Virus record (IMG/VR): IMGVR_UViG_2671181122_000005
Coordinates: 1-25,637 of that record
Origin: a virus
Lineage: Duplodnaviria > Heunggongvirae > Uroviricota > Caudoviricetes
Length of the DNA stretch: 25,637 nt
Reading direction: 5' to 3' (one strand)
The notes beneath the pieces are model-generated. The model saw only the letters and a list, made by a program, of their open reading frames with translations, searched no databases and was not told where the DNA came from. Below, in pieces: positions 1 to 17,046 of this stretch. The translations under genes were made by a program, and so were the position numbers. How positions within the stretch are numbered: position 1 is the first letter of the stretch; each line of letters opens with the position of its first letter.

Positions 1-27
1 TGGCTCAAAGCTGAAAGCTTTCCGGAA

Positions 28-51
28 CCCCCAGCCTAGCTGGGGGTTTTC
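28..51 (+). terminator. Intrinsic terminator hairpin (cccccag / ctggggg) followed by a T-run
   Basis: GC stem with a 5-nt loop followed by tttt on the plus strand. It is convergent with the next terminator, which marks a gene boundary. Confidence 0.5.
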
Positions 52-55
52 TGTG

Positions 56-84
56 CACAAAAAAACCCGCTCATCGGCGGGTTT
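56..84 (-). terminator. Intrinsic terminator downstream of the ORF6N-type gene
   Basis: Stem cccgc/gcggg with an A-run on the plus strand, giving a long T-run after the stem on the minus strand. Confidence 0.55.
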
Positions 85-159
85 AAGCTGTGCGGCGTAG
101 TAACCACTCTTAACAGTATATTCAACTTTTTACGATCGTAAAGCGTTCGGGGGAAATTT

Positions 160-720
160 TTAAAGCCGCATCAACCGCTCCACCAGTTGCTCTTTACGGG
201 CAACGATCCACCCGTGTTGCTCCAGATAAAATTTAAACCGTTCCAGAGTGCATACCATCGCATCGGCGGGCACCTTTTCCGTGAACTCAACCTGACCATG
301 TTTATCGAAGTGGATCAGTAATGCGCATCCATCATTTTCGATAGATGTGTTTTGTGCCGCTGGTGGTTGTTTTTGGTTGAAATAACAGTCTTCCAGTTTT
401 TCGAATACTTCCCACGCCTGATCGGTTTCGAGCATTTTGGCGTGACGGGCTGCTCCGCGTTCTGTCCAGAGTATGAGCTTTCGGACATTTGGGGCGATCG
501 TTTGAAAATCCCTTAAAGAGATTTTCAAATTTTGGAGGTCTGCGCCTTTCGCAATTATGTAGTGCTTCCCTTCTGCAAATCGCTCTTTATTACGGTGGTG
601 ATTTCTATGAATACACTCGACGCTACAGCCATATAGTTTGGCCAGTAACTCTGTAGTGACAACTGGGAGCTGGTTGTGTGTGATCGGGGAAAGAGTTTCG
701 ACAGAAACTTGAGTCGTCAT
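160..720 (-). CDS. ORF6N/antirepressor-like domain protein (186 aa), first gene downstream of pR'/tR'
   Basis: Six-frame ORF. The N-terminal segment (QLPVVTTELLAKLYGCSVECIHRNHHRNKERFAEGKHYIIAKGADLQ) resembles the ORF6N / Bro-N-type phage antirepressor fold. Family assignment is from memory. Confidence 0.55.
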   Translation of the reverse strand: MTTQVSVETLSPITHNQLPVVTTELLAKLYGCSVECIHRNHHRNKERFAEGKHYIIAKGADLQNLKISLRDFQTIAPNVRKLILWTERGAARHAKMLETDQAWEVFEKLEDCYFNQKQPPAAQNTSIENDGCALLIHFDKHGQVEFTEKVPADAMVCTLERFKFYLEQHGWIVARKEQLVERLMRL

Positions 721-882
721 GATAACGCCCTCTGGTTGATGGATTTAACTATCACCACCGTCAGGTTCCAATCATTGGGTGGTGAGACGTACAGGGTTGG
801 AACTACCGGATCAACCAACCGGCGAGCCTTTCAGCTCCCCCATACGCCCCACCATTATTCAGATGTGCGTGTGCTTACGACA

Positions 883-906
883 ATAAAAAACACGCTCGCG
901 GCGTGT
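883..906 (-). terminator. tR'-like intrinsic terminator downstream of the late promoter
   Basis: On the minus strand, hairpin cacgccgcgagcgtg followed by ttttttatt, about 60-80 nt downstream of the candidate pR'. Confidence 0.5.
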
Positions 907-964
907 GTCTGTCGCGGTTGAATATCCGGGGTTCCAATCCCGACGCCAGATTTTGCTGACGCGC

Positions 965-1000
965 GAGGAATATAGCCCCGGACAATGTATATGGTCAAGC
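965..1000 (-). promoter_or_regulatory. pR'-like late promoter immediately downstream of Q (TTGACC -35, about 18-bp spacer, TATATT -10 on the minus strand)
   Basis: Minus-strand sequence cTTGACCatatacattgtccggggcTATATTcc starts 3 nt after the Q stop. This is the position of pR'/qut in lambdoid phages. Confidence 0.5.
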
Positions 1001-1002
1001 AC

Positions 1003-1398
1003 CTACATAATTCGTTCTACATATCTGTCCATCTCCAGCCGGATATCAAGCATCATCAACATGCCATCGATAACCCCTTCCGCCTTCTGCAGGCGCTTAC
1101 CAACACAGGTATCCGAACATCCAAGTTTCCGTGCCAGACTCATAAAAGTCATTCCATATACGTAATAATCCACCAGCAAATCGTGCAAATCCTGATTTTT
1201 CTTGTTTAACCGGGCCATACAGCCACAAATTATCATTGCATCATCATCAGAACACTGAGGACGTGATTTCACTTTCGACGGAATTAACCCTTTAAAACCA
1301 GCAGCGATCGACGCCCAGGATACATCTTCATGAGTGTTTGCAACCCAAGCCCCCCACCGTTCCATAACCTGCTGAATATCACGCGCCATCGTTATCAC
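1003..1398 (-). CDS. quuD: Late antiterminator Q (QuuD/phage 82-type)
   Basis: The translation ([46 protein letters not shown]...) is very close to DLP12 QuuD as I recall it. The true start is probably the Met at 1389; the ORF overlaps the rusA stop. Confidence 0.85.
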
Positions 1399-1750
1399 CT
1401 GTGATTTCGTAAATCTTCACGCCCAGTCGCCCACCAGGAACGAGCTGACCGCGCACAATATTGATTTCATCAAACTGCTCGTCGTCTATGAGAAGTTCGG
1501 CATGCGTCAGCGCATCCAGTGGTGCTTTCAGGATATTGTCCAGGTCACGACGGCGCTTATCCGGTGGCTCTGCAATCACCTTTATCGCCAGCCTTCCGGA
1601 CAGGCTTAATTTCAGCCGCTGCTGGCGAACAATAAGCGCCACAGCCCGGCGATAACGCTTTCCCTCCTCCGAGATAAAATATGTGCTGCCACGGCGTCGC
1701 CAGTAAGTGTTCACCGTCGGCGGGTAAGGTAAAACCAAATCTATGAGCAT
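1379..1750 (-). CDS. rusA: Holliday junction resolvase RusA
   Basis: The 123-aa translation carries the RusA hallmark [19 protein letters not shown] and ends in a GGRL-type C-terminus. It lies between a DUF968 gene and Q, as in DLP12. Confidence 0.9.
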
Positions 1751-1762
1751 CAGTCACCTCTT

Positions 1763-2812
1763 TTACCCAAGCACGCCAGTTGCAAAGGCGTGATCAAGAA
1801 AACGAAAAATTAAATCAACCTGAGAGCCATGCTTTTCTTCGAACGCCAGCGGATCCGCATGAAGCTCGTTGTGATGCTCCCGACACAGCGGTAGCGTGAA
1901 AATATCGTGAGATTTTGTCCCCATTCCGCCCTGACCATGACCAATCAGGTGATGGGGATCGTCGGCTGGCTTACCACAACACGCACACGGCTGAGTCTTC
2001 ACCCAGCGTGTGTATTTCTCGTTAACCCAGCGGCGACGTTTAGGTCGTTTCATGAAAGATTCCGGAGACTCAGGATCAACGGCAATGCTGACCACCGTCT
2101 TTTCCTGTGGTGGGTTCTGTTGCTGGTGGACGTCAGGCAGTAACGCAATATTTTTTGTGCGCTGCTTCAGTATGCTGGTGGCGGTCTGCTCTCCCGGCAC
2201 GATGTCGCTTTCACGGTACATTGAGCGGATTTTTTCCGCACGCACCCCCAGCGAACGACGTAATACCGCTTCCGGTAGCGCGTCCGCCACCTGATTGCGG
2301 ACCGCCCACCAGGATAATTCAGCCAAAGATAATTCACGCTCCTGCGTACCGCTTATTGCGTGACCGATGACGTCAATCATCCATGCTGACAGGTTTTGAT
2401 GAGCAAGTTGCTCGAGTGATTCGGATGTCTGGTCACGCAGCTGGTTGTCGCAGTGCCAGCACAACACCATTGCGCCGGTACCATAACGGTGAATGACAGT
2501 TTCGCTGTGATGATAATCGCCGTGTGGCCACTGGCAGGATTTAATATGGCGCAACAGCCAGTCAGACAATGCACCTGCACCACCAGCAGCACGAATCACC
2601 CGTGCGTTACTGAAAAACGGCAGCAATGTTTTGTCTTCCTCCAGCGGCTGGCGAACGGCAGGAACGACCCCGGACGGCAGATTACGCATGCTTTTCGGTT
2701 CCGGCTCCATCAATACCCGGGTATTGTGGAATACTGGCATGGATTCACGGCCCGGCTTAACGATCACCAGCCCGAGTTCCGGTACCAGAACAGGTCGAAG
2801 TAATACCCGCAC
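1763..2812 (-). CDS. ydfU: YdfU-like DUF968 protein (349 aa)
   Basis: Same length as K-12 YdfU. The C-terminus has the Cys/His-rich motif CACCGKPADDPHHLIGHGQGGMGTKSHDIFTLPLCREHHNELH. Confidence 0.75.
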   Translation of the reverse strand: MRVLLRPVLVPELGLVIVKPGRESMPVFHNTRVLMEPEPKSMRNLPSGVVPAVRQPLEEDKTLLPFFSNARVIRAAGGAGALSDWLLRHIKSCQWPHGDYHHSETVIHRYGTGAMVLCWHCDNQLRDQTSESLEQLAHQNLSAWMIDVIGHAISGTQERELSLAELSWWAVRNQVADALPEAVLRRSLGVRAEKIRSMYRESDIVPGEQTATSILKQRTKNIALLPDVHQQQNPPQEKTVVSIAVDPESPESFMKRPKRRRWVNEKYTRWVKTQPCACCGKPADDPHHLIGHGQGGMGTKSHDIFTLPLCREHHNELHADPLAFEEKHGSQVDLIFRFLDHAFATGVLG

Positions 2813-2813
2813 G

Positions 2814-3092
2814 TTACCTCCAGATGCGTTGCTGGAATGTGCGAGACGGACGCGGTGGGCGTTCAGAGTAAGGAAGCCTGACGGAGATTATCCAGTGACG
2901 GTAGTCGAGACTAAGGGCTTTCTTAACCTCGTATCCGCGCCTGCGGTAACACTGAATTATCCATTCAGCCTGCTCTTCAGTACATGGAGGGTGTTGGAAC
3001 CATTCAGACTTGAATGCGTGAGAATACCGCTCGTGCGTGCAGGCAAGAACGGGCGAATTATCAGAATTGTAATATTTTACGTTGCGTGCCAT
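2814..3092 (-). CDS. Small nin-region protein (92 aa), DUF1364/YbcO-like
   Basis: ORF packed tightly against ydfU, with its stop adjacent to the ydfU start. Family assignment is tentative and from memory. Confidence 0.5.
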   Translation of the reverse strand: MARNVKYYNSDNSPVLACTHERYSHAFKSEWFQHPPCTEEQAEWIIQCYRRRGYEVKKALSLDYRHWIISVRLPYSERPPRPSRTFQQRIWR

Positions 3093-3158
3093 CGGTTTTC
3101 TCCGGTGGCACGGTGTTACTCAGCGGGAGTTCAGCCCCGCGCAAGATTGTAGATGAGT

Positions 3159-3410
3159 TTATTCTTCTGCAAAAGCTGAAAAGCCTGCTTTTATTCCGAT
3201 CTCTTTCAGTGCCTGTAATGAAGTGACAAACTCACCTTCGCGCAAGATAAATCCGTCTGTCACTCGACCATCCACAAAATTAATTAACGCAGCCCCATTC
3301 TTTCGCAAACACATAATGCGGTAATGACTAACAAGATTTCCATTTTCAACGCACACAGCATAGAGGCCATCTTCACAAAAAATTTTACGCAGTTCTTCGA
3401 TGTTCATCAT
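3159..3410 (-). CDS. rem: Rem-like small protein (83 aa)
   Basis: 83-aa ORF immediately downstream (in minus-strand sense) of hokD, the position and size of Qin rem. No sequence-level confirmation was possible. Confidence 0.45.
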   Translation of the reverse strand: MMNIEELRKIFCEDGLYAVCVENGNLVSHYRIMCLRKNGAALINFVDGRVTDGFILREGEFVTSLQALKEIGIKAGFSAFAEE

Positions 3411-3523
3411 CAGAATCCTTCCGGATAATTAGCTCTCCCCTTTAAGGGACCATCCCTCTTATCCCTGCGCGCTACTTAAGTATTTTTGATTCTATTCCGG
3501 CGCCGTCCAGAACTTCAAACGCG

Positions 3524-3558
3524 TTGAAAATAAAAACAAAAACCCGCCGAAGCGGGTT
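3524..3558 (-). terminator. Intrinsic terminator at the 3' end of the hok transcript
   Basis: Stem cccgc/gcggg with a cgaa loop and a long A-run on the plus strand, giving a T-run after the stem on the minus strand, about 70 nt below the hok stop. Confidence 0.55.
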
Positions 3559-3626
3559 AAGTGCGGGTGCGTTGAGGATGCCTGCCACATCAGAGGTGGC
3601 GAGGGATTTCTCCCTCGCCGGGTCTC

Positions 3627-3782
3627 TTACTCCTCAGGTTCGTAAGCTGTGAAGACAGCGACCTCCGTCTGGCCGGTTCGGATTCGTACCTCGCAGAGGT
3701 CTTTCCTCGTTACCAGTGTCGTCACTATGACGGTTAAACAGATGACGATCAGGGCGATTAACATCGCCTTTTGCTGCTTCAT
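3627..3782 (-). CDS. hokD: Hok/Gef family type I toxin, HokD (RelF)-like, 51 aa
   Basis: The internal Met of the 70-aa ORF gives MKQQKAMLIALIVICLTVIVTTLVTRKDLCEVRIRTGQTEVAVFTAYEPEE, which differs from K-12 HokD at about one residue. Confidence 0.9.
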   Translation of the reverse strand: MKQQKAMLIALIVICLTVIVTTLVTRKDLCEVRIRTGQTEVAVFTAYEPEE

Positions 3783-4095
3783 AGCCTGCTTCTCCTTGCC
3801 TTCCGGCACGTAAGAGGCTAACCTACATGTGTCTAGCATGAAATTGGCCTCAGATTAATGTTAAGCGTCTTGCAGGACGCGTAATGTTAACTGGGGCTTT
3901 TCTCTATCTGCCTTTGGTGTTCATGCCTGAGACAGATAGCCTCAAGCACCCGCAGCCATTCTACTTAACTCCCGTTACCCCGCCAATATGAAATCAGTCA
4001 GAAAGGCGATCCATAAGAATAATGAATTCTGTAAGGCAATAGTCTCACTGTCTAACATATCTTACCTGATTACTTTACAATATAATAATTCATAG

Positions 4096-4740
4096 TTAAA
4101 TCAAATGAATGTCATCATCCAATAATTCATTAGTAGTAATACTACCTTTTTTGAAAAAATTTTCATTTGTCTCAGCAATTTTTGCATCATTAACAAATTC
4201 ATCACACATCCCAAAATAATGAAAAAATCTATTTAGTTTACATATTCCAATGGTATAGTGCCCTTTAGGTGTTTTGTCCACATAAACACGATTTGCTTTT
4301 ATAATATGCATCTCATAATCATCTATATGTGGATGAACGATGCGAAATGATGCAGATGCAGTTGGATAGTTTTTGCGCCGCCCCCCATTTATTACGGGTT
4401 CAAATAACACTTCATTTTTACCTTTGAATTCATTGCAGTCAGGACATACTACACATAGATTCTTAGGTTCAAAAATAAAACATAGATATTGAGATTTTGG
4501 CACAATATGCTCTATAGGAGCAGCTTGTGCAGCTCTTACCCCAATAGGCTCATGACAATATACACATTCTAGCTTTTGTTCTTCTCTGTAATGATTTCTA
4601 ATTTCTGCACGGAGAACTTGCAAATCATCATCTCCCCAGTTGGTATGCTTAAAATCTGGAGAAGACAATTTTTTCTCAATAATATCTAATGACTCTGCGC
4701 TGAATCTAATTGGATTTTTAATTTTTGGCATAAATTTCAC
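4096..4740 (-). CDS. HNH endonuclease (214 aa), PtuB-like partner of the upstream ATPase
   Basis: HNH/zinc-finger core: CVYCHEP (aa 59-65), EHIVPKS (aa 77-83), CVVCPDCN (aa 96-103). The start overlaps the ATPase gene by 23 nt. AT-rich codon usage. Confidence 0.75.
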   Translation of the reverse strand: MKFMPKIKNPIRFSAESLDIIEKKLSSPDFKHTNWGDDDLQVLRAEIRNHYREEQKLECVYCHEPIGVRAAQAAPIEHIVPKSQYLCFIFEPKNLCVVCPDCNEFKGKNEVLFEPVINGGRRKNYPTASASFRIVHPHIDDYEMHIIKANRVYVDKTPKGHYTIGICKLNRFFHYFGMCDEFVNDAKIAETNENFFKKGSITTNELLDDDIHLI

Positions 4741-6091
4741 ACACCTGAGATACGGAATTTACGAGTTCATTAATAGGGTCATTACTATTAACGTTTTCAA
4801 GGAGAAGTTGGAGTTGTTTTAATTCACGCCAATTATCATCTGTTACTAACTTAGCAGTCTTAACTTTTGAAAGTAAATTGAAAGCTAACCTGGCAATGTA
4901 TTCATTCATAATGCCAGGGGCATCAAATAGTTCCGCAAGTTGATAGTCTGCAGACCGGTTGCTAAAGTATTTTGCTTTATAAAGATAACTTTTCGACAAA
5001 GATGTTATATAACAACCTTTATTCGGCAAATTGGATATTATTTGTGGTGAATGAGTTGCAATTATGAATTGACAACCTGAGTAAGTTAAAAATGCTTTTG
5101 TTAACATAATGATAAACTCTTCCTGCCATCGAGGATGCAAGCTTATTTCCGGTTCATCAATTAATATTATAGAACCATCAGTTATATGCCCTGCAATTCC
5201 AAGCAACATCACTAATAAACATTGTTCTCCCGAGCTCGCACGTTTAAGTGACATGGGACCATAGCTTTTTTTTATGAGTCGCATATCCATCAATCTCATG
5301 AAGCCAGCGTTCATAAGTTTAAGAATTGATCTAGAAAAATAATTATTCGCATAAGTCGAGCCAACCAATGTTTCACCATTGGTAAAATCGACTGACAAGG
5401 TTACAGCCCTACGTTCAGGTTCAAATCGATTAATTTCAACCAGTGCTTCGTAAATATCATGACGTGATTCGGAGTTTAACTTTAAGAGACTCTCAATATT
5501 CTTCCTGTCAATTTTTATATTGTATTTTAAATATAACTCCTTAACTTCCGTTAATATCTCATCTGAATATACACCAATGAAGTTATAGTCAGGAGTGTCC
5601 GGTCCGTTGTAAGTTGGTTTAAATACAAACTCTATATGGGGCTCAAAATCAATAGAATGAAAAACATCGAGTAAATTTGCAGGATTTTCTGAATAAGCAA
5701 GTTTCTCTAGCCAACCTCTCGCTGCTGAAGATAAAAGGGATACGGCATTTGATACGCCGAAGGGGCCTTCTCCACGCATACCCACATAGCGATAATTATT
5801 TTCTTTCCTTTGGTGATTTAATGACCTACGCCCTGGAGGGAATTTATCGAATGGGCTGGTAGATACGGCAATTAACTTTGGTGTTATTTCTCTGTCAAAT
5901 AATGGATTAAAAGTTTTCAAGAAATGAACATCTTGAATACAGTCTTTAGCAATCTGAGATAACAATCTGCTTTTTCCAACGCCATTTTTACCTACAATTA
6001 CTGTAAAAATATTCGCATTATCAGAAACATCACCTTCTATAGCAAGTTTTAAGGTTCGACTATCATGATGGGTATAATATAGTCTTTTCAT
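4718..6091 (-). CDS. ABC/AAA_21-type ATPase (457 aa), PtuA-like
   Basis: Walker A GKNGVGKS (aa 34-41), signature-like SSGEQ (aa 286-290), Walker B IILIDEPE (aa 308-315), H-loop ATHS (aa 345-348), with a long insert between Walker A and the signature, as in SMC/RecF-like defence ATPases. Confidence 0.75.
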   Translation of the reverse strand: MKRLYYTHHDSRTLKLAIEGDVSDNANIFTVIVGKNGVGKSRLLSQIAKDCIQDVHFLKTFNPLFDREITPKLIAVSTSPFDKFPPGRRSLNHQRKENNYRYVGMRGEGPFGVSNAVSLLSSAARGWLEKLAYSENPANLLDVFHSIDFEPHIEFVFKPTYNGPDTPDYNFIGVYSDEILTEVKELYLKYNIKIDRKNIESLLKLNSESRHDIYEALVEINRFEPERRAVTLSVDFTNGETLVGSTYANNYFSRSILKLMNAGFMRLMDMRLIKKSYGPMSLKRASSGEQCLLVMLLGIAGHITDGSIILIDEPEISLHPRWQEEFIIMLTKAFLTYSGCQFIIATHSPQIISNLPNKGCYITSLSKSYLYKAKYFSNRSADYQLAELFDAPGIMNEYIARLAFNLLSKVKTAKLVTDDNWRELKQLQLLLENVNSNDPINELVNSVSQVCEIYAKN

Positions 6092-6503
6092 TTTATTTTT
6101 CTCTCATTAAAATGCTCTTAATTAAGAATACCTATGCCTTTAACAGGCTCATAGTTATGATTTGTGATGCTTTCAAAAGGGTATGTAACTAAGTATTGAA
6201 CTCTACACCTAAGATTCTAAGATTTTTAAATTAAAGTAGTTAAACATGCTTTTGATTGTACTCATTCTATGTCCATCGTTGCTGCATGTCTAGATATCGT
6301 GCCCCGCTATTGTTATGTAATGATATGATGGACGCCCTGTCTGAAGCAGCCAGTGAAATATTTTTACTGTCTGCGTTTTCTACAGGAGTAAATCACATGA
6401 GCACAATCAGAGTTGTTGGTATTGATATTGACCTGTGCCCAATTTTTTGAGACATATATTGGTACGCTCTTGGCACAGGGCTGCTGCTGCAGCCCTGACA
6501 GCT

Positions 6504-7072
6504 TTAGACTTCGATCGATTCAGAGATCTCTAATGCATCATCAACTTCTATACCCAGATAACGAACTGTGCTTTCCGTTTTCTTATGGCCCAACGGAAGT
6601 TGGATCACCCGGAGATTCTTAGTTTTCTTGCAGACAAGGCAAGGTTTTGTTCTTCTCATGGAATGTGTGCTGTAAAGCGAATCTTCGAGACCAAGCTTTT
6701 CTCCCCCCTATGAAAGATTCGGTTATATTGCAGGATTGATATGTGTTGGTTAGTACCGACCCGAGATCGGAACAAGTAGTCTTTACTGCGTAAATTGCCA
6801 AGCTTTATCAATGCAGAAACAGCTTCTCTTGTCCCTTTGGTTATCTCAAATTGGATAGGACTGCCAGTTTTTCAGTTGCAGCACCGTAGCTCTGCTTGAA
6901 ACCGAGCTAAATCACGCGTTTTACCTTCCAGTTCAAGCCGGATTTGGAGCCCCCAGATATGAGATATCTGAAGTGGTCTTTTTGGGCCTATGATACTGTC
7001 TTTGTTCCTCGGTGACGTATTCATACTCAAATCTCCTGCAATGTGGAAGATTTGAGTATGGTTGTCTCTCAA
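6504..7072 (-). pseudogene. Frameshifted small tyrosine recombinase (FimB/FimE-size) remnant
   Basis: Minus-strand frame ending at 6504 encodes ...LYSTHSMRRTKPCLVCKKTKNLRVIQLPLGHKKTESTVRYLGIEVDDALEISESIEV*, with the HxxR...LGH...Y catalytic C-terminal pattern. Upstream pieces sit in two other frames (ORFs 6619..6801 and 6872..7072), with one shift at a C6/G6 homopolymer (6703-6708). Confidence 0.45.
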
Positions 7073-7125
7073 GAGCGAAATAGGTCAACTATAACTAGTT
7101 GTTGTGCATGTACGAATTCTGCCAA

Positions 7126-7971
7126 TTAATTATTGACAATAAAAATTCTGGAATGTTCGAAATCATCATATCGAATTATAATCTGGTTGACTGCATCTAT
7201 TGTTGGCGCCATTTCAGTTATAATATCTCGATAACCTAAAGAGTTAAATACATTTACTAAGGCCTCACACCGCAGGCCAATAGCAATTACGACATTATAA
7301 ATTGCCAGCCGTTTATTTTCTTGTTTAACTGCAAGAGTGAGTTCGATAGCAGTAGTTTTATCGCTTTGGATTGCATTATATAGAGATACTATATTTGCCA
7401 TATCATCAGAGAATGTATGTATTGAATCACAAAGAGGGACGTAATAGGCATGATAGTGTGTTTCCCAGCCAATTACTTCGAAAAGCTTTTTGGTTCCAGG
7501 ATATTCAGGTGTATTTGGCCACAATCTATTAAACATATCAGTTAGCTCTTTTCCGATACGAATCCTTTCATCTGCTGCTGGATTAGTCATTTCTTTGGAT
7601 TTTAAACACTCCAGCCACCGTTTCCCATTACTATGAACTAATTTCTTACTACCCTTGAGTAATGCTTGTGCATTTTTTCCATCATCAATTGCTATATAAA
7701 ATTGATTGGCAGCCTGTTCCATTATAACTCTAGTTAATACTTCCGATGCTGAAAAGGCTCCGGTACTCAAAGAAAATATAGCCTGATTACTAAGTTCATT
7801 CAGTACATTAAAGTAATGTAAAACCATCAATTTTTGTTCCACCCCCTTTAGGTTATCTATTTTATTTTTATGCCTCTCAAATTTCGCATGGATATATTTA
7901 TTTATCGCGGCTATTTTTTTTACATCTTCGTCGAAATCAAACGGGCAACGTCCAAACGATTTTTTCCTCAT
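7126..7971 (-). CDS. Hypothetical protein (281 aa), unassigned; candidate accessory/defence gene
   Basis: Long AT-rich ORF in the accessory block. No family recognised. The C-terminus has an Rx5H-type motif (RYDDFEH) that could be HEPN-like. Confidence 0.6.
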   Translation of the reverse strand: MRKKSFGRCPFDFDEDVKKIAAINKYIHAKFERHKNKIDNLKGVEQKLMVLHYFNVLNELSNQAIFSLSTGAFSASEVLTRVIMEQAANQFYIAIDDGKNAQALLKGSKKLVHSNGKRWLECLKSKEMTNPAADERIRIGKELTDMFNRLWPNTPEYPGTKKLFEVIGWETHYHAYYVPLCDSIHTFSDDMANIVSLYNAIQSDKTTAIELTLAVKQENKRLAIYNVVIAIGLRCEALVNVFNSLGYRDIITEMAPTIDAVNQIIIRYDDFEHSRIFIVNN

Positions 7972-8410
7972 ATATTCCTCCTGTTTTACAATCTCCCATA
8001 AGTTGGAAAATTATACACTGGAGATTACCTATAAATAACTGCGCACGATAGCTAGTCAGTGCAAGAAGTACAAACAAGTGAACGGTGCGTATCAGATACC
8101 TAGCTTAAAGTTCGCGATAGCCGTACTCTGTGTATTAGCTCAGACATTACCTGACAGGTTGAGTAGATAGAATCGAATCAAAGCTGACAGTCTGGTTTGG
8201 ACTGTGGGGTCAACCGATGGATGCAACACACAGCGATCTACAGACATTACTAACATAGCGGTGTATTAATCATCGGGGAGCAGATCAGACTAACATTAAG
8301 CATTAGTAGTAATTTGCAGAGCATCCGTTTCTTACACAAAGCAAACCCCCACGCTAGCCCAACCCTGTGCCACACAATGTCAATTCACATCTGAACTAAT
8401 GCTCTTTAAT

Positions 8411-8611
8411 CTAGTAACGTCTAAAATATCGAACATTTCCCTGATAAAATGCCAGTATGCGCTGCATAACTTCACTCATTGTGGTGGTTTCTTCCGGCAG
8501 TTCTGCCTGCGCTGGCTGTTCCTGCTGAACGTTGTTATCAGCCACACGCCAGGTGTACGCGCTTTTATCAACAAAACCAGCCTTTTTCAGTTCCCATAGT
8601 TCGTTCAGCAC
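8411..8611 (-). CDS. Small protein downstream of P (66 aa, GTG start), possibly the 3' part of a frameshifted gene starting at 8685
   Basis: A 26-codon ORF ([26 protein letters not shown]) with a strong SD (GGGAGGA) starts at 8685 in another frame and abuts this ORF. Confidence 0.3.
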
Positions 8612-8717
8612 TTCTTCACGCGCGCAGCAAGTTCTATGGATGTGGCTTTTCCCATTGCTTTCAGTGCGTCAAAAACAGTCTCCATAAATTTCCTCCCGGT
8701 AAAAATTACTTCTCAAC

Positions 8718-9383
8718 TCAAACAAGCCCAGCCGCTTTCCGGCGTTCATATTCCTGTTTCAGCAACTCAATTGGCGTTGGCCCCGACGGGCGTTTGGGTG
8801 CCGCCAGTTGTCGCCGGACTGGCGGAACGCTCAGGCCGTTACTAACATGCTTTGCCCATTTCGTCAGCTGCCGTTCTGCAAGCCGTTTTAATTCCCCTTC
8901 GGTCATCTGGCGCTCAACCCCCTTTGAACGCATCTCGAGGCAAATGTGATACAGCACAGGCTGAGACCACGGGTACTTATCACTTCCGTCGTATCGCCAG
9001 GACTCATTGCGCCAGCGGCGGTACTCCTCCATCACAGCATCCACCGTCAGACCGAATGGATTGGCTCCGCTTTCCGAAATCAGTGCCACAAACTCAGCCA
9101 GGTCCGGAGGCCATGTTTCACCCTCCCGGCAGCGGTCCATGCACTGGCGGCAGACCTGTCGGATTTGCTGCTCAGTCATCGCACCAATCTGTGCAATCCA
9201 GAGCTTCGAAGGTGCGGCCCCGTTCTTCTGGGTCCAGCGGTTCGAATAAACCTCCCCCATGAGTTCCCACAGCTTCCACGCCGTTTCCGTCGCGGATAAA
9301 TCCGTTTTCACGTTCCCACTGCTCACGTGCTGCCCGAATTTCCTGAACTGCCCGTGATGCGGTGCCCCCTGGTGCTGCTGCAT
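8718..9383 (-). CDS. Replication protein P-like (DnaB loader), start uncertain
   Basis: Similarity to lambda P from memory in segments such as PWSQPVLYHICLEMR and MTEGELKRLAERQL. The ORF overlaps the O-like ORF by about 210 nt, so the true start may be an internal Met (9260 or 9179). Confidence 0.6.
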   Translation of the reverse strand: MQQHQGAPHHGQFRKFGQHVSSGNVKTDLSATETAWKLWELMGEVYSNRWTQKNGAAPSKLWIAQIGAMTEQQIRQVCRQCMDRCREGETWPPDLAEFVALISESGANPFGLTVDAVMEEYRRWRNESWRYDGSDKYPWSQPVLYHICLEMRSKGVERQMTEGELKRLAERQLTKWAKHVSNGLSVPPVRRQLAAPKRPSGPTPIELLKQEYERRKAAGLV

Positions 9384-10278
9384 GGTTCACCCCCTTGCTG
9401 ACTGGTTTAACCTGCGCCCTGACGTGATTTACGTGACGGGCGAATTTCTGCTCCCACTGAATCTGCGTAAACACTTTCCCCTCATCACTCCAGTAATCCC
9501 GGAATGCGGCAAGTTCAGCAGGTGTAAATTCCGGCTCCGGCAAAGCCATCCCCCACAACGCAGCCCGTCGTCGAAAATCCCGCGACGGATGCCAGCTATC
9601 GGTCATCAGAAATTTTCCGATGGGTTCTCTCAGGCCATCCAGGAATACTGCCTGTAACGACAAAACTTCCTGCTCACTGGTCAGAGCACTCTCGCGTGCG
9701 TTATGTGTGGGGTTTAGAACTTTGGGTTCCTTTGGGTTCCGTGATCCGTTTTTGGGTGTCTTTGATGGAAAATTTGGGTGTCTTTGGTTATTTTCCATGC
9801 AGCTAAGAGTTCCGTTTTTGGGTCTGTTTTGTGCTGAAACATAACCATTTTCGGTACTGTTTTTATTAACAGCACCAATTTTACCCACCTTTAAAGACTC
9901 CCGTTTTTGGGTGTATTCAGGCTCGGCAACACTTTCTTCTACACCGATAAGTCGGTACACCACAATTTGCTTTGTTCTGCCTTTTCTCTCACCGGTATCA
10001 ACAATTAACCCAATCTCCATCAGGTGTCGTAAGCTGTCCTGCACTGTCTTTTTGTTCAGTTCCGTTACTTCTGCCAGGGCAGATACAGACGGGTATGCAC
10101 ACAAATCGGCACCGCACATATCAGCAAGCCAGGTCAATACTGACTTACTGGATGAACTGCCGGTTTTCACCTTTTTAGCCCATCGTAGTGCATCGATACT
10201 CATACGAACCCCTGGCAGACATTTGTTTATCTGCAAAGTAATATTGATATTGCTGACGATACGCATGCTTGAAAGCAA
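9172..10278 (-). CDS. Replication initiator O-like protein with HTH N-terminus and internal origin iterons
   Basis: 368-aa ORF with an HTH-like N-terminal region. The central part is encoded by the iteron array (PKNG-type repeats in the protein), as for lambda O/ori. Confidence 0.65.
   Translation of the reverse strand: MLSSMRIVSNINITLQINKCLPGVRMSIDALRWAKKVKTGSSSSKSVLTWLADMCGADLCAYPSVSALAEVTELNKKTVQDSLRHLMEIGLIVDTGERKGRTKQIVVYRLIGVEESVAEPEYTQKRESLKVGKIGAVNKNSTENGYVSAQNRPKNGTLSCMENNQRHPNFPSKTPKNGSRNPKEPKVLNPTHNARESALTSEQEVLSLQAVFLDGLREPIGKFLMTDSWHPSRDFRRRAALWGMALPEPEFTPAELAAFRDYWSDEGKVFTQIQWEQKFARHVNHVRAQVKPVSKGVNHAAAPGGTASRAVQEIRAAREQWERENGFIRDGNGVEAVGTHGGGLFEPLDPEERGRTFEALDCTDWCDD
9715..9915. 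repeat. Iteron array (TTTGGGT-containing direct repeats), putative phage origin of replication inside the O-like gene
   Basis: At least 5-6 copies of ccgtttttgggtgt / ctttgggttcc-type repeats between 9720 and 9915, with an adjacent AT-rich stretch (9840-9890). Confidence 0.6.
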
Positions 10279-10726
10279 TAGCTTTTTCTATAAGCTCGTC
10301 AGTCTCACGTTCCACAACAGCTGGATCCGCAAAAAGCAGCCCGGACTCCACCACATCGCCATATTCTTTGTTTAATCCGGCGATCATGTACGTAATGCTT
10401 TTTCCATCACTGATCTCACGATACAGCCTGAAATCACTAATTCGGATAGCCTCCATAATTGCCGGAATCAGCGCCGTGAATTTTTTCCGCTTATCCCTGG
10501 TGTCGATAGCTTTCCAGCGTTCGAATATCTTCACCCGGTTAACGCCCAGCGCCCGTTGATCAACCTCGCCATCATTAAACGTGACGCGTTGAACATCGAT
10601 GTTCGGGCGTTCTTTCAGAGCCCAGAATGCTTCCGTGATTAATATCGTCGCCTGCTCCTGTGTCATTCCTGGTCGGCATACCCAGGCATCCAGAGCCTCA
10701 CAAACCTGTTCAGGGGTGATTTTCAT
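10175..10726 (-). CDS. Phage early protein (183 aa) in the cII position; YdaT-like assignment is tentative
   Basis: ORF directly downstream of the cro-like gene, overlapping it by 17 nt. Family assignment is weak. Confidence 0.5.
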   Translation of the reverse strand: MKITPEQVCEALDAWVCRPGMTQEQATILITEAFWALKERPNIDVQRVTFNDGEVDQRALGVNRVKIFERWKAIDTRDKRKKFTALIPAIMEAIRISDFRLYREISDGKSITYMIAGLNKEYGDVVESGLLFADPAVVERETDELIEKAIAFKHAYRQQYQYYFADKQMSARGSYEYRCTTMG

Positions 10727-10937
10727 TGTTCAACCGCCCCGCCCGCTTTGCCTTACGATATTCGTCATAAACTTTGGGGTCGTACTGAAGTTCCCCGCCG
10801 GATGCCTCTTGCAGGCGCATCGCGCGACCTTCAGGAACCAGTTCCCCCCATTGAGAAACAGCAGATGGATCAACACCAGCAGCTTTCGCTACTTTGGCTT
10901 TCGTCCCATAAAAATTAATTACGTCTGATTTAAACAT
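10710..10937 (-). CDS. dicC: Cro-like repressor DicC/YdaS family (75 aa from the Met at 10937)
   Basis: MFKSDVINFYGTKAKVAKAAGVDPSAVSQWGELVPEGRAMRLQEASGGELQYDPKVY... The ATG at 10937 has a GGAGGGG SD. Divergent from dicA. Confidence 0.7.
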   Translation of the reverse strand: MFKSDVINFYGTKAKVAKAAGVDPSAVSQWGELVPEGRAMRLQEASGGELQYDPKVYDEYRKAKRAGRLNNENHP

Positions 10938-11014
10938 CACCCCTCCAAAGTTGAGTTTTCTCAATAGTAATCACTCAAGGAATCTCAAGTCAAGGGTTAT
11001 TAAGATATCTAAAT
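10938..11014. promoter_or_regulatory. Divergent dicC/dicA promoter-operator region containing the palindrome TTGAGTTTTCTCAA (10951-10964)
   Basis: 77-bp intergenic region between divergent repressor genes. A perfect 14-bp palindrome lies here, and a near copy recurs at 11485-11497. Confidence 0.45.
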
Positions 11015-11422
11015 ATGAACGAGAAAACTTTAGGTCAACGAATTAGAGAAAGACGCAAACAGGTTGGTTTAAGTCAAAACGATTTAAGCAAAGCTGCTGG
11101 CGTATCTGGCTCATCAATTTCACTATGGGAAAGCGACCATACAGCCCCGCGCGGGCAAAATTTGCATCGCCTGGCTGAGGTATTGCAATGTTCACCAACT
11201 TGGATACTGTTTGGTGACGAGGATAAAACACCAGATCCACCAGTTGCACTCAACAGCGCCTTAGACTTATCGGAAGATGAGTTGGAGATGTTGCGATTGT
11301 ATCGCGCACTTCCAAAATCAGAGCAGCAAGCACAAATCAGCGAACTCCGTGCCCGCGTTGAGAATTTTAATCGCCTATTCACCGAGCTACTAGAAGCTCG
11401 CAAACGTAACAAACATCAATAA
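11015..11422 (+). CDS. dicA: XRE-family repressor DicA (135 aa)
   Basis: The translation matches K-12 DicA along its length as I recall it (e.g. VLQCSPTWILFGDEDK, ELRARVENFNRLFTELLEARKRN). Confidence 0.9.
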   Translation: MNEKTLGQRIRERRKQVGLSQNDLSKAAGVSGSSISLWESDHTAPRGQNLHRLAEVLQCSPTWILFGDEDKTPDPPVALNSALDLSEDELEMLRLYRALPKSEQQAQISELRARVENFNRLFTELLEARKRNKHQ

Positions 11423-11484
11423 CCCCCCTTCACAAATTTTAAAGCCTTACATTTCAATGTATTGGCTTTATTTTGCATTAAATA

Positions 11485-11540
11485 TTGAGTTTTCTCATTA
11501 AAAGTACTTGACCAATATTCATGAGAAAACTAAATTACGA
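11485..11540 (+). promoter_or_regulatory. Putative DicA-repressed promoter of the ydfA-dicF-dicB operon (operator TTGAGTTTTCTCA, -35 TTGACC, -10 TAAATT)
   Basis: Operator-like repeat at 11485-11497, followed by TTGACC (11508-11513), a 17-bp spacer and TAAATT (11531-11536). Confidence 0.4.
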
Positions 11541-11613
11541 TCCATCAAGACACCGCACGGTGTTCTCAGCAAACAGTTCCGCTACCCCGGCGTTAAGGGG
11601 AAATGAGGTCAAC

Positions 11614-11766
11614 ATGGATACTATCGATCTTGGCAACAACGAATCTCTGGTGTACGGCGTGTTCCCCAACCAGGGCGGTACGTTCACCGCGATGACATAT
11701 ACCAAAAGCAAAACGTTTAAAACCGGATCTGGCGCGCGTTGCTGGTTAGCCAGAAACACTGACTGA
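11614..11766 (+). CDS. ydfA: YdfA-like small protein (50 aa)
   Basis: The internal Met, with a GAGG SD, gives MDTIDLGNNESLVYGVFPNQGGTFTAMTYTKSKTFKTGSGARCWLARNTD. Size and position match K-12 ydfA. Confidence 0.6.
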   Translation: MDTIDLGNNESLVYGVFPNQGGTFTAMTYTKSKTFKTGSGARCWLARNTD

Positions 11767-12143
11767 TGAGGCTGACGATGGAATTTAAAGATTTACCGTC
11801 TGATGTACAGAAAACAGCAGCTCATACATTGCATTCTGTGCTGCGAGAAATCGGGAAAGATATTGCAAGCGAGCCAGCAAAAGATCTGGCCCGGAAAATC
11901 AAGACCGCTTTCGTTGAGCTTTATAATGTTGGCACTGACTCTGAAACTGTCGAGACCAAGACCGTAAGTTCACCAATATTCTCACTTGAGCCAAGCGTAT
12001 TATCAGGTGAAATATGCACCGAGATTTCCAGCGAACTGCTTCCGGTAATACGAGAAGCAATTTGCCGTCGCGGTTTGGATGGAAGTTACGATCATGACGT
12101 CCTGCAAGTTCTCAGGACAATGGTGACTTCACTGGGGATTTGA
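11766..12143 (+). CDS. YdfB/YdfC-like protein (121-125 aa)
   Basis: ORF overlapping the ydfA stop (TGATG). An alternative start at 11778 has a GAGG SD. It occupies the ydfB-ydfC position upstream of dicF. Confidence 0.55.
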   Translation: MRLTMEFKDLPSDVQKTAAHTLHSVLREIGKDIASEPAKDLARKIKTAFVELYNVGTDSETVETKTVSSPIFSLEPSVLSGEICTEISSELLPVIREAICRRGLDGSYDHDVLQVLRTMVTSLGI

Positions 12144-12312
12144 TCCCTGCGTCCTCTAACCTTTTGATATAGCGGTCCTCCAAGAAGCGGTAAATTTTGT
12201 CGAAATCATCTTTCCCCTCTGGTTTATTCAGAGGATTACAGGACCCGTAAGTAGCGGCATACATTTCAACCGTTTTATCAAAAATATAAGAGACAAATTC
12301 TTCTTTAGTCAT
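12112..12312 (-). CDS. Small convergent ORF (66 aa) with a strong SD, inside the dicB operon region
   Basis: ATG at 12312 preceded by AAGGAAATCTAT, encoding MTKEEFVSYIFDKTVEMYAATYGSCNPLNKPEGKDDFDKIYRFLEDRYIKRLEDAGIKSPVKSPLS. No family recognised. Confidence 0.35.
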   Translation of the reverse strand: MTKEEFVSYIFDKTVEMYAATYGSCNPLNKPEGKDDFDKIYRFLEDRYIKRLEDAGIKSPVKSPLS

Positions 12313-12587
12313 ATAGATTTCCTTCTTGGTTATTCGGGATAAGAAGGATACCACCTCGCCTGACGTGGTTAAAAGCAGGCACACAACACGAAAGCGCACG
12401 GCGAAGTTCGTCTCACTGTACGGTGTCGTTAAATTTAATTCGACCGTGCGCTTCCGGTTGTGGCAACCCGCGAAATGGCGCGGCGGTAAGTATGGCGGGG
12501 TTATTCCTTCCCCCGTTGAGGACACCGGGTTGTCAGGTTGACCATACGCTTAAGTGACAACCCCGCTGCAACGCCCTCTGTTATCAA

Positions 12588-12646
12588 TTTTCTGGTGACG
12601 TTTGGCGGTATCAGTTTTACTCCGTGACTGCTCTGCCGCCGTTTTT
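12588..12646 (+). ncRNA. dicF: DicF small regulatory RNA (ftsZ-targeting sRNA)
   Basis: TTTCTGGTGACGTTTGGCGGTATCAGTTTTACTCCGTGACTGCTCTGCCGCC followed by a T-run matches the K-12 DicF sequence as I recall it. It lies between ydfC and dicB as expected. Confidence 0.85.
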
Positions 12647-12815
12647 AAAGTGAATTTTGTGATGCGGTGAATGCGGCTGAGCGCACGCGGAACAGTTAAA
12701 ACCAAAAACAGTGTTATGGGTGGATTCTCTGTATCCGGCGTTAATTGTTAACTGGTTAACGTCACCTGGAGGCACCAGGCACCGCATCACAAAATTCATT
12801 GTTGAGGACGCGATA

Positions 12816-13004
12816 ATGGAAACGTTATTACCAAACGTTAATACGTCTGAAGGTTGTTTTGATATTGGTGTTCTGCTCAGTAACCGGGAGTTTACTGAAG
12901 ATGCCATTAATATGAGGAAATATGAGCCTTATCTGCTCAATGATAATTCCATACTTTCCCGAATTGCTCTTCTTGAACTTGGTATTTTCGGAGAACGTCA
13001 ATGA
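12816..13004 (+). CDS. dicB: Cell division inhibitor DicB (62 aa)
   Basis: METLLPNVNTSEGCFDIGVLLSNREFTEDAINMRKYEPYLLN... matches the DicB N-terminus. The start is the internal Met of the 97-aa ORF. Confidence 0.85.
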   Translation: METLLPNVNTSEGCFDIGVLLSNREFTEDAINMRKYEPYLLNDNSILSRIALLELGIFGERQ

Positions 13005-13189
13005 CTTCAGCATTTGCACTGATGATGACGGTTTTTCTTATAACGGGTGAATCACAGAATGTGATTACCAGAATTTATGCCAGTAAAGAATCCTGCCTCC
13101 AGGCAAGAGACGAGCAAAAAATTTCTGGTGAATGCCTCCCGGTAAAAAAAGTATCGCTGTACCTGAATAACGAAACACCGGCTGGATAA
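13001..13189 (+). CDS. ydfD: YdfD-like small lysis-associated membrane protein (62 aa)
   Basis: MTSAFALMMTVFLITGESQNVITRIYASKESCLQARDEQKISGECLPVKK... overlaps the dicB stop. Position and size match Qin ydfD. Confidence 0.75.
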   Translation: MTSAFALMMTVFLITGESQNVITRIYASKESCLQARDEQKISGECLPVKKVSLYLNNETPAG

Positions 13190-13284
13190 CCCTCCAGCCA
13201 TATTAACACCATACCAACGGATTAAAAATGCCAGCAATGGCAGGGATTCGTTCACCCTGAAATCTGTAATGAGGTTAAAACAAA

Positions 13285-15817: not shown

Positions 15818-16021
15818 ATGAGCAGCTTATTTTTAACCGAAGATGAATTGCTAATATTAACGGGCTGCAAATATGCAAGCCACCAGCGAAAATGGTTAAT
15901 GGAAAACGGGCTTCCGTTCTATACCAATCGTAGTGGCAAACCGATTGTCAGCCGGGATCTATTTACCTGCAATAAAACTTTACCACCACGCGAGGTAGAG
16001 CCGAATTTTGGTGCGATCTGA
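15818..16021 (+). CDS. Excisionase-like protein (67 aa)
   Basis: Small ORF immediately upstream of int, with its stop overlapping the int ATG (TGATG). Typical xis placement. Confidence 0.6.
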   Translation: MSSLFLTEDELLILTGCKYASHQRKWLMENGLPFYTNRSGKPIVSRDLFTCNKTLPPREVEPNFGAI

Positions 16022-17046
16022 TGGGAAGACGAAGGAAAAATCCTGAACACGAAAAATTACCTCCAAATGTATACCCAAATAAATATAGTTATGTATGGAA
16101 ACCAACATCCAGAGAATCTGTAACACTAACCGCCATCAAGGATGGTTTAGCTGCTTTATGGAAAAAGTATGAGGAAACTGTAAATAATCGCGATCGTGCA
16201 ATGACATTCGGTCGCTTGTGGGAAAAATTCCTCGCCAGCGCCTGTTACAGTGACCTTAGCCCAAGAACACAAAAAGATTATCTGCAACATCAAAAAAAGT
16301 TGCTTGCCGTATTCGGTAAGGTACCAGCGGATTCCATAAAACCAGAACACATCCGTCGATACATGGACAAAAGAGGGGAACAGAGCAAAACGCAAGCCAA
16401 CCATGAAAAAAGCAGTATGTCCCGCGTTTACAGTTGGGGATATGAGCGAGGGTACGTGAAGGCTAACCCATGTGCAGGTGTAAGTAAATTCAAGGCCAAA
16501 AACCGCGAACGATATGTAACCGACAAAGAATACCAGGCAGTATTAAGCGTTGCACCTCTTCCTGTTTTTATCGCAATGGAAATTGCCTATCTGTGTGCAG
16601 CGAGGGTTTCCGATGTGTTATCGCTGAAATGGGAGCAGATTGGAAACGACGGGATCTTTATCCAGCAAGGGAAAACAGGGAAAAAACAGATAAAAGCATG
16701 GAGTCCACGATTACAGGCGGCGATCGAAAAAGCAAAACAGTTACCAACATCCGCCTATGTAATCAGCAATCAATACGGCAACCGATATATGTACAAAGGC
16801 TTTAACGAAATGTGGGTAGAAGCAAGAAATCGCGCAGGCAAAATTTCAGGTATTTTAACCGACTTCACCTTTCATGATCTGAAGGCGAAAGGAATTTCAG
16901 ACTATGAAGGAAGCAGTCGGGATAAGCAACTTTTCTCTGGTCACAAAACCGAAGGGCAAGTGCTAATCTATGACAGGAAGGTTAAAGTTTCACCAACACT
17001 TGATGTCCCGTTACCTGAAAATATTCCAAGACAATATTCCAAGTAA
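16021..17046 (+). CDS. Tyrosine integrase (lambda Int family, 341 aa)
   Basis: C-terminal catalytic region with HDLKAKG...SGHKTEGQVLIYDRK (R-H-R-Y pattern), adjacent to the att core. Confidence 0.9.
   Translation: MGRRRKNPEHEKLPPNVYPNKYSYVWKPTSRESVTLTAIKDGLAALWKKYEETVNNRDRAMTFGRLWEKFLASACYSDLSPRTQKDYLQHQKKLLAVFGKVPADSIKPEHIRRYMDKRGEQSKTQANHEKSSMSRVYSWGYERGYVKANPCAGVSKFKAKNRERYVTDKEYQAVLSVAPLPVFIAMEIAYLCAARVSDVLSLKWEQIGNDGIFIQQGKTGKKQIKAWSPRLQAAIEKAKQLPTSAYVISNQYGNRYMYKGFNEMWVEARNRAGKISGILTDFTFHDLKAKGISDYEGSSRDKQLFSGHKTEGQVLIYDRKVKVSPTLDVPLPENIPRQYSK

Follow-up and report, generated by a model that had tools for sequence, protein, structure and literature searches.

What is a long run of AT-rich DNA doing between hokD and the replication genes of an Escherichia coli prophage, and how did it get there? 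The question is posed by a stretch of 25,637 nucleotides (IMG/VR virus record IMGVR_UViG_2671181122_000005; 'the window' in what follows), in which an earlier note had marked the interval 3900-8410 as an accessory block. The host element is a Qin/Rac-type lambdoid prophage of E. coli. The view reached here is that the block is very probably horizontally acquired cargo lodged in a variable slot of that prophage: it would comprise a Septu module and a recombinase/DUF5677 module, brought together by recombination.

The block and its slot

The departure in composition is abrupt. GC content is 0.367 across 4024-8480, against 0.484 for the remaining prophage; in 500-bp windows, the mean is 0.370 within these limits (standard deviation 0.029, n=15) and 0.484 elsewhere in the prophage (standard deviation 0.039; Mann-Whitney p = 8e-9 for the difference). 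On a sliding scale (500 bp), the value falls from about 0.50 to 0.31-0.44 at roughly 3800-8400, and the lowest-GC segment of 4.46 kb in the whole window is the block itself. GC at third codon positions (GC3) changes in the same way: 0.21 for ptuB, 0.28 for ptuA and 0.27 for the DUF5677 gene, against 0.61 for P and 0.55 for DUF968 in the flanks. The greater AT-richness asserted at first reading is thus borne out by overall GC and by GC3, and the uniform composition that would have told against it is not what either measure describes.

With gene annotation taken from RefSeq record NZ_CP148579.1 (99.96% identical over window positions 1-13500), the order runs antiterminator Q, rusA, DUF968, rem, hokD (3627-3782, minus strand), the block, a DUF1627 remnant, replication gene P (8718-9179), a DnaT-like O-type protein, ydaT and cro; the repressor follows cro, on the plus strand. 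Within the block lie the genes listed at the outset: a 281-codon open reading frame (ORF), an ATPase gene, an HNH gene and a decayed recombinase. The ORF-poor DNA that was also remarked on is present, as about 1.1-1.2 kb of non-coding sequence.

Both edges had to be moved. On the left, alignment shows that homology to four related prophages with other cargo stops at about 4023, 70 nt below the ptuB stop codon. The earlier start at 3900 was still within conserved backbone, since the sok antisense/regulatory RNA spans 3777-3951 (minus strand; Rfam RF01794, 117 bits, E 5e-27). The hokD/sok pair, whose flank is kept in those four prophages up to the same point, does not belong to the cargo: it is the slot's conserved anchor on the left. 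On the right, backbone homology restarts at 8481 within the 5' part of the DUF1627 gene (alignment, BLAST); this gene survives as a 5' remnant at 8483-8685 (minus strand; a pseudogene by RefSeq annotation, with alignment and BLAST matches to comparison loci L003-L005). Just inside the junction, 8324-8479 (minus strand) is 81-83% identical to 7554-7718 of locus L006 and 10642-10804 of locus L018, segments that overlap or abut DUF977 genes there; it also matches lambdoid phages, and is what is left of the 3' end and downstream flank of a DUF977 gene. At 8480, then, an internal deletion has joined two phage genes, with the loss of most of DUF977 and of the 3' portion of DUF1627. As 8324-8479 is already phage DNA, the foreign DNA proper stops at about 8288, which is also the end of a module common to P2-like prophages; the rightmost ~190 bp of the interval first noted are phage-gene remnants of that deletion. 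The cargo proper is then a mosaic at 4024-8288, ~4.27 kb, measured from the left homology break to the end of the P2-shared module.

The DUF1627 remnant has in addition a 13-bp deletion near 8590-8610, found also in the prophage of locus L005, which carries paa, and absent from three other relatives. The shared lesion suggests closer kinship of the backbone with the L005 lineage.

Bounded by the replication module (P, DUF1627, DUF977) on one side and the hokD/sok-rem-Q region on the other, the slot varies in its contents. The block was found in 19 of 5,426 complete E. coli genomes, so that it is no core possession of this family; some part of window positions 3000-9500 was matched in 5,061 of them, a figure that counts a match to at least part of that interval, chiefly its hokD-rem side. 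The 19 copies are 99.5-100% identical, and come from strains of humans, chickens, a dog, a panda, a rabbit farm, cucumber and seawater; enteropathogenic E. coli (EPEC) E2348/69 is one of the carriers.

Related prophages have at least ten different cargo sets between the same anchors. Known defence systems are among them: AbiLi/AbiLii (PADLOC 4.5e-91 and 2.9e-29) and, in E. coli E22, a full-length PD-T7-1 homologue (L018 7771-9120; PADLOC 7e-157). Further relatives have an LA2681-type HEPN protein, or genes for NACHT and KwaB-like proteins, DUF4209 and QueH. Others hold the Paa adhesin with a fimbrial pseudogene, an alpha/beta hydrolase, an SDR protein with a helix-turn-helix regulator or, in one relative, eight small phage-type ORFs; in the Qin prophage of E. 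coli K-12, relBE, ydfV and flxA occupy the slot next to hokD. The right-hand boundaries of these alternatives vary in alignment, and no convincing direct or inverted repeats flank the block. Together, the varying boundaries and the lack of flanking repeats favor recombinational replacement over insertion at a single attachment site.

These observations support a variable slot with foreign DNA, as had been proposed, and allow it to be described more precisely as a defense and moron hotspot of a temperate phage. The capture of foreign DNA stands as to foreignness; it does not stand as the capture of one piece, as the cargo is a mosaic of at least two modules that travel separately.

The Septu pair

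The first of the two modules is an operon of an ATPase gene and an HNH nuclease gene that, as judged from sequence, is a complete stand-alone Septu type I system. PtuA and PtuB are reportedly the two components of Septu type I. Here, ptuA (4718-6091, minus strand) encodes an ABC-type ATPase of 457 amino acids; its residues 2-455 fall on positions 3-447 of the 448-position PADLOC profile PtuA1 (PDLC00283, E 1.2e-165), with Pfam matches to AAA_21 (2e-20) and AAA_15 (1e-16). The motifs are intact: Walker A with K40, Walker B with D312/E313, the signature SSGEQ at 286 and the H-loop at 345. The nuclease gene ptuB (4096-4731, minus strand) encodes 211 amino acids from the annotated ATG, or 214 if the ORF is read from a GTG at 4740; residues 7-212 of the 214 fall on positions 2-205 of the 213 in PADLOC profile PtuB1 (PDLC00325, E 1.1e-83). 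The Pfam HNH domain is matched at 4.5e-5, and H78 and N94 (H75 and N91 in the 211-residue numbering) are present along with CxxC pairs. The two genes lie on the same strand and overlap by 14 nt. An overlapping ptuA-ptuB pair recurs in all six related loci from species-representative genomes, all of them Pseudomonas (PtuA identity 39-66%). In short, each of the marks by which Septu type I is recognized from sequence is present.

Homologous pairs also serve as effectors of type I-A retrons. There is no reverse transcriptase ORF in 3400-8800, and an Rfam scan of 3300-8900, covering retron and other RNA families, returned sok only; the two results together argue for the stand-alone form. In E. coli, this ptuAB allele is confined to the 19 genomes with the block; a relative at 69% nucleotide identity is found in four Shiga toxin-producing strains.

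By homology with studied systems, PtuA oligomers would hold the PtuB nuclease inactive until phage infection; PtuB would then be freed and act, and the infected cell would cease to support phage growth. Septu would in this way shield the lysogen, and hence the prophage, from competing phages. Upstream of ptuA is a non-coding region (6092-6461, minus strand), in which a promoter scan placed two sigma-70-like sites on the coding strand, at 6292-6264 (TAGACA-17-TAGAAT) and 6243-6214. RNA folding of this region is unremarkable (z = -0.7), and no Rfam family was matched there. A 14-nt inverted repeat at 6000-6013 and 6357-6370 was considered as the ends of an invertible element and set aside: it would cut into ptuA, and the repeat is not in other loci.

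The DUF5677 gene and the short recombinase

The second module joins an intact gene for a DUF5677 protein of 281 amino acids (7126-7971, minus strand; Pfam PF18928, E 3.4e-9; PHROG 4167, of unknown function) to the decayed recombinase. Its distribution is its own. A search with the gene alone found it in 57 of the 5,426 genomes: 19 with an allele at least 99% identical, the same number as carry the block, and 38 with an allele at ~92%. In both of the ~92% cases inspected, out of 38 (S88 and IHE3034), the gene is in a P2-like prophage, between the tail-fibre assembly and tail sheath genes, a position that we take to be the Z/fun variable locus of P2. The module shared with P2-like prophages extends from 6540, inside the recombinase gene, to 8288. 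It includes the 317 bp upstream of DUF5677 (7972-8288, minus strand), which are ~86% identical in P2-like prophages (BLAST to L007 and L008). A TATAAT can be read ~36 nt before the DUF5677 ATG, and no structured-RNA signal was obtained from 7972-8288 (z = -0.1).

The outer end of the module, 8260-8288, reads TGATCTGCTCCCC... on the minus strand and by eye recalls the terminal repeat of an IS3-family element. The block is matched only as far as about 8236 in strains 2013C-4974 and OkiPb01713; in the former, an IS3-family element is found immediately past that point (L028 8254-9467), and the early region of the prophage is missing.

The protein belongs to a small and uniform family. Searched with a profile, 1.84 billion representative proteins yielded 65 clusters only, all single-domain and about 280-300 amino acids long. 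An AlphaFold2 model drawing on 47 homologues (predicted local distance difference test, 91.6) is all-alpha, with ten helices, and has no match in the PDB by Foldseek. Twelve polar residues are invariant: E77, R81, E85, Q86, N89, R136, C181, D182, S183, H185, R221 and Y225. They do not seem to make up the canonical Rx4-6H motif of HEPN nucleases, as R81, R136 and R221 lack a conserved downstream histidine; R267-x5-H273, in the C-terminal helix, has its arginine in 40 and its histidine in 32 of 47 homologues.

What these genes do is suggested by their neighbors. A homologue in Pseudomonas lurida sits beside CBASS genes and an nSTAND NTPase; another Pseudomonas homologue, in locus L014 (35% identity), is beside a Gabija-like pair of OLD-TOPRIM and UvrD proteins; and in Burkholderia a homologue is carried in a mobile element. 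Judged by this genomic association, the DUF5677 protein probably works alone in defence or exclusion, and is put forward as a candidate for that role. A supplement to the DefensePredictor work also has an E. coli DUF5677 protein as predicted to be defensive (mean log-odds 5.74); DUF5677 is absent from the validated domains of the paper itself. In Bacillota, the domain is reported as enriched beside serine recombinases.

An Erwiniaceae lambdoid prophage (L011 5160-12819) has a DUF5677 homologue straight after a lambda-P-type gene, followed by DUF4365, NADAR, PRTase-CE and GAPS4-type PD-(D/E)XK genes. The post-replication slot seems to be a defense hotspot beyond E. coli.

Between the Septu operon and DUF5677 lies the other part of the second module, a short tyrosine-recombinase unit (6462-7079, minus strand). 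Its gene (6504-7024, minus strand; 'frameshifted; internal stop' in RefSeq) is dead: set against intact copies in alignment, it lacks 82 bp and carries small indels as well as an internal stop. Intact copies encode 194-200 amino acids, are about 90% identical, and come in a discrete unit of ~700 bp. They are found mid-cargo in the same slot of other prophages (2012EL-2448, E22), and adjoin DUF5677 in P2-like prophages as well. Beyond phages, 2,105 enterobacterial plasmid records matched the block, the recombinase corresponding to 'site-specific integrase' genes among the matches listed; in the two plasmids inspected, the unit stands amid unrelated accessory genes. Copies were located at L006 4990-5700, L018 6800-7510, L007 5983-6622 and, in L019 and L020, at about 4990-5700. 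Six of the seven aligned contexts, from the lambdoid slot and plasmids, have the unit ending at the same two points, one ~40 bp beyond the stop codon and the other ~55 bp ahead of the ATG; in the P2-like copy (S88) only the 5' end agrees, homology being lost within the 3' part of the gene. The unit seems to recur at junctions between cargo modules; it could act as an anchor for recombination, or be a very small mobile element in its own right. A short inverted repeat, GTCCGCT...AGCGGAC, can be read by eye at its ends.

A palindrome at 7022-7060 covers the Shine-Dalgarno sequence and start codon of the recombinase gene: CATACTCAAATCTCC-N9-GGAGATTTGAGTATG, which is 13-13-13 in the window's copy. 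The palindrome, lox-like and 15-9-15 in its conserved form, was found in the window, L006, L018 and L007. Two roles can be imagined, crossover site or regulator. As RNA, it would form a hairpin of 13-15 bp hiding the Shine-Dalgarno sequence and AUG (z = -5.1). The points at which the contexts cease to be homologous are 18-20 bp outside the palindrome and not within its spacer; this favors the second role, a putative regulatory hairpin of the recombinase gene. A further hairpin, 9-4-9, follows the recombinase stop codon in the unit. Two other identifications for the recombinase were considered and set aside: a FimB/E-like invertible promoter, as the NCBIfam invertase match is weak (1.8e-5) and below those to XerA/XerC; and K-12 ydfW (intK) as a remnant of the same short recombinase, for which BLASTP gave no support (E = 0.4).

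Recombinase and DUF5677 keep company in Pseudomonas too. In L014, a short recombinase 57% identical to that of E. coli is two genes away from the DUF5677 homologue, and on the other side is an inverted remnant, the C-terminal 44 amino acids of a second recombinase copy; the three features lie at 6473-7081, 8001-8861 and 9602-9733 of that locus. In E22 (L018), the PD-T7-1 gene is directly beside the intact short recombinase, the position held by DUF5677 in the window.

A bolder proposal would make of recombinase and neighbor gene a small mobile cassette, ferrying single-gene defense proteins (DUF5677, PD-T7-1) among hotspots of unrelated phages (the lambdoid P-hokD slot and the P2 tail-fibre/sheath slot), plasmids and Pseudomonas defense islands. 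Its grounds are the sharp ends of the unit, the 15-9-15 palindrome and the proximity of DUF5677 in both E. coli and Pseudomonas. As a joint claim, that the cassette is of a previously undescribed kind and that DUF5677 is its stand-alone effector, related to DitA (reportedly a protein of the Aditi defense system), the proposal is speculative and fairly unlikely.

Origin of the block and its likeness to known systems

How, then, was the block put together? It holds two independent modules, the Septu operon on one side and the recombinase and DUF5677 cassette on the other, with the dead recombinase gene between them. The mosaic would have been assembled stepwise, by recombination between sequences common to prophages and other mobile DNA, the proposed anchors being the flank of hok/sok, the short recombinase unit and the flank of DUF977; the stepwise order is suggested because the three parts differ in distribution and the recombinase is dead. 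Once built, the block would have spread along with the prophage. Its genes are read in the direction of the early-right operon; in the lysogen they would need promoters of their own, and after induction they would be served by read-through.

A simpler history would make the block a single small integrative element, inserted site-specifically by its own tyrosine recombinase, which later decayed. The block does contain such a gene, intact copies sit mid-cargo in the same slot, and the unit around them has sharp conserved ends and the lox-like 15-9-15 palindrome. But the recombinase (frameshifted, with its 82-bp deletion) is in the middle of the block and not at an end, and the three parts differ in distribution: Septu is in 19 genomes, DUF5677 in 57, and the recombinase on plasmids. 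No direct repeats flank the block, the alternative cargos end at different right boundaries, and the contexts diverge 18-20 bp beyond the palindrome instead of in the spacer. A single insertion is accordingly a poor candidate. Poorer still, to the point of being scarcely credible, is the idea that nothing was acquired, the DNA being an ordinary, AT-rich part of the phage that answers to the nin or early-gene region of lambda and is native to this lineage. It is located where lambda has the nin genes, all its intact genes are on the strand of the early-right operon, and one relative does have the eight small phage-type ORFs in the slot. A native region should not, however, be limited to 19 of 5,426 genomes when 5,061 match part of 3000-9500, nor be set off by so sharp a break in composition and GC3; its contents, moreover, are Septu and a gene common to P2-like phages and Pseudomonas defense islands.

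There is also the possibility that the DNA is foreign yet inert: a relic that has been silenced or is decaying and plays no part at present. Decay is evident in parts: the recombinase is dead, DUF977 and DUF1627 are truncated, ptuA is frameshifted in one strain, insertion sequence elements interrupt or adjoin the block in several strains, and a strong promoter signal was not found. Against this, ptuA, ptuB and DUF5677 are intact, and none of their catalytic or invariant residues is missing; copies of the block agree at 99.5-100% across varied hosts and sources; and it has been retained even in a prophage remnant whose early region was lost to an IS3-family element. An inert relic is unlikely, if a little less so than a single insertion. 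The preferred account thus remains that of acquired cargo assembled by recombination.

Several considerations weigh against that account, or against the functions attached to it. PtuA aligns to the solved structures of PtuA, retron PtuA and AriA only around the ABC signature and Walker B (E 1e-12 to 3e-7), and PtuB has no match among PDB sequences; with an allele so divergent from solved structures, target and trigger may differ from those of the systems studied. A frameshift breaks ptuA in two in one of the 19 copies. Promoter-like sites are no commoner in the block than in shuffled sequence, and such AT-rich DNA may be silenced. For DUF5677, searches of PADLOC, NCBIfam and Pfam gave no family beyond PF18928; one enterobacterial homologue sits amid ordinary genes; and a Bacillota DUF5677 gene that has been tested gave no protection against six Enterococcus phages. 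Nor is defense the only use of the slot, since paa, SDR and hydrolase cargo are also found there.

Even so, a rare and divergent Septu allele and a candidate defense gene are now placed in a defined slot that is easily searched. The slot, from hokD/sok to DUF977/DUF1627/P, belongs to a very common family of E. coli prophages, and could be mined for new defense genes as the P2/P4 hotspots were. The occurrence of the DUF5677 cassette in hotspots of two unrelated phage families bears on the exchange of defense genes; and susceptibility to phages used in therapy or typing may be affected by the block, EPEC E2348/69 being one of its carriers. Prophage-borne defense islands and Septu are both well established, and in kind the finding is unsurprising. 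Less ordinary, as hypotheses, are a DUF5677 candidate common to the hotspots of two phage families and a recombinase unit placed at cargo junctions.

Elsewhere in the window there is a second AT-rich patch, at 17874-19333 (GC 0.31-0.39), with ORFs for an NleF-like protein (189 amino acids; Pfam NleF_casp_inhib, 7e-8) and an unassigned protein of 234 amino acids. It is just past the tail fibre gene (collagen repeats, 19786-21105), Lom (21164-21763) and a J-like gene (21830-25345) of a neighboring lambdoid prophage, and has the appearance of type III effector cargo such as an EPEC-type strain would carry. Colinearity with NZ_CP148579.1 extends only to about 15807 of the window, after which comes a different integrase (16021-17046, plus strand); the prophage adjoins different DNA in the two strains. 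No tRNA gene was found in the window.

Among known systems, Aditi bears on the DUF5677 gene. DitA may be related to the protein here through the DUF5677 domain; the latter protein differs in being single-domain, with 281 amino acids, and in having no DitB-like partner: downstream is the recombinase pseudogene and upstream are 511 bp of non-coding or remnant DNA, neither an intact neighbor gene, and the P2-like copies are likewise without one. According to the DefensePredictor supplement, HHblits links an E. coli DUF5677 protein to DitA with probability 96, and DitA carries PF18928 at residues 276-427; the PADLOC profile for DitA matched neither the protein here nor 46 homologues.

Retron-Eco7 (Ec78) has as its type I-A effector a homologous PtuAB pair, and the likeness registers in NCBIfam (PtuA 3e-18, PtuB 3e-7) and in PADLOC matches to ATPase_I-A and HNH_I-A. 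The contrast is that neither a reverse transcriptase gene nor msr/msd RNA is in or beside the block, and that the NCBIfam score is 66 bits against a cut-off of 500. The E. coli system Septu Ec-B88 (PMC13096335) is a two-gene operon of ABC ATPase then HNH gene like this one. That system requires Walker A/B and HNH residues, cuts tRNA-Tyr at C48/A49 in a manner resembling abortive infection, and acts chiefly on T5-like and some T-even phages (PMC13096335). The essential Walker and H-N-H residues have counterparts here; H75/N91 of PtuB coincide in numbering, whereas the Walker residues are K43/D316 there and K40/D312 here. Identity with the Ec-B88 allele was considered and is unsupported, as PtuA residue numbering differs. 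By analogy, the allele in the block would have anti-phage activity, with tRNA-Tyr as its presumptive target.

For the slot itself, the nearest comparison within the lambdoid family is the rem-hokD-relEB-ydfV-flxA segment of K-12 Qin, alike in backbone and slot and different in cargo. The broader comparison is with the hotspots of P2-like and P4 elements, where likewise a fixed site, bracketed by conserved genes, takes up many alternative cargos including known defense systems, Septu among them (Rousset et al. 2022, PMC9122126); the P2 locus studied there is the cos-proximal one, and not the tail-fibre/sheath locus that harbors the DUF5677 cassette. The slot described here differs in belonging to a lambdoid phage, in its position between the replication genes and hokD, and in admitting virulence and metabolic cargo along with defense.

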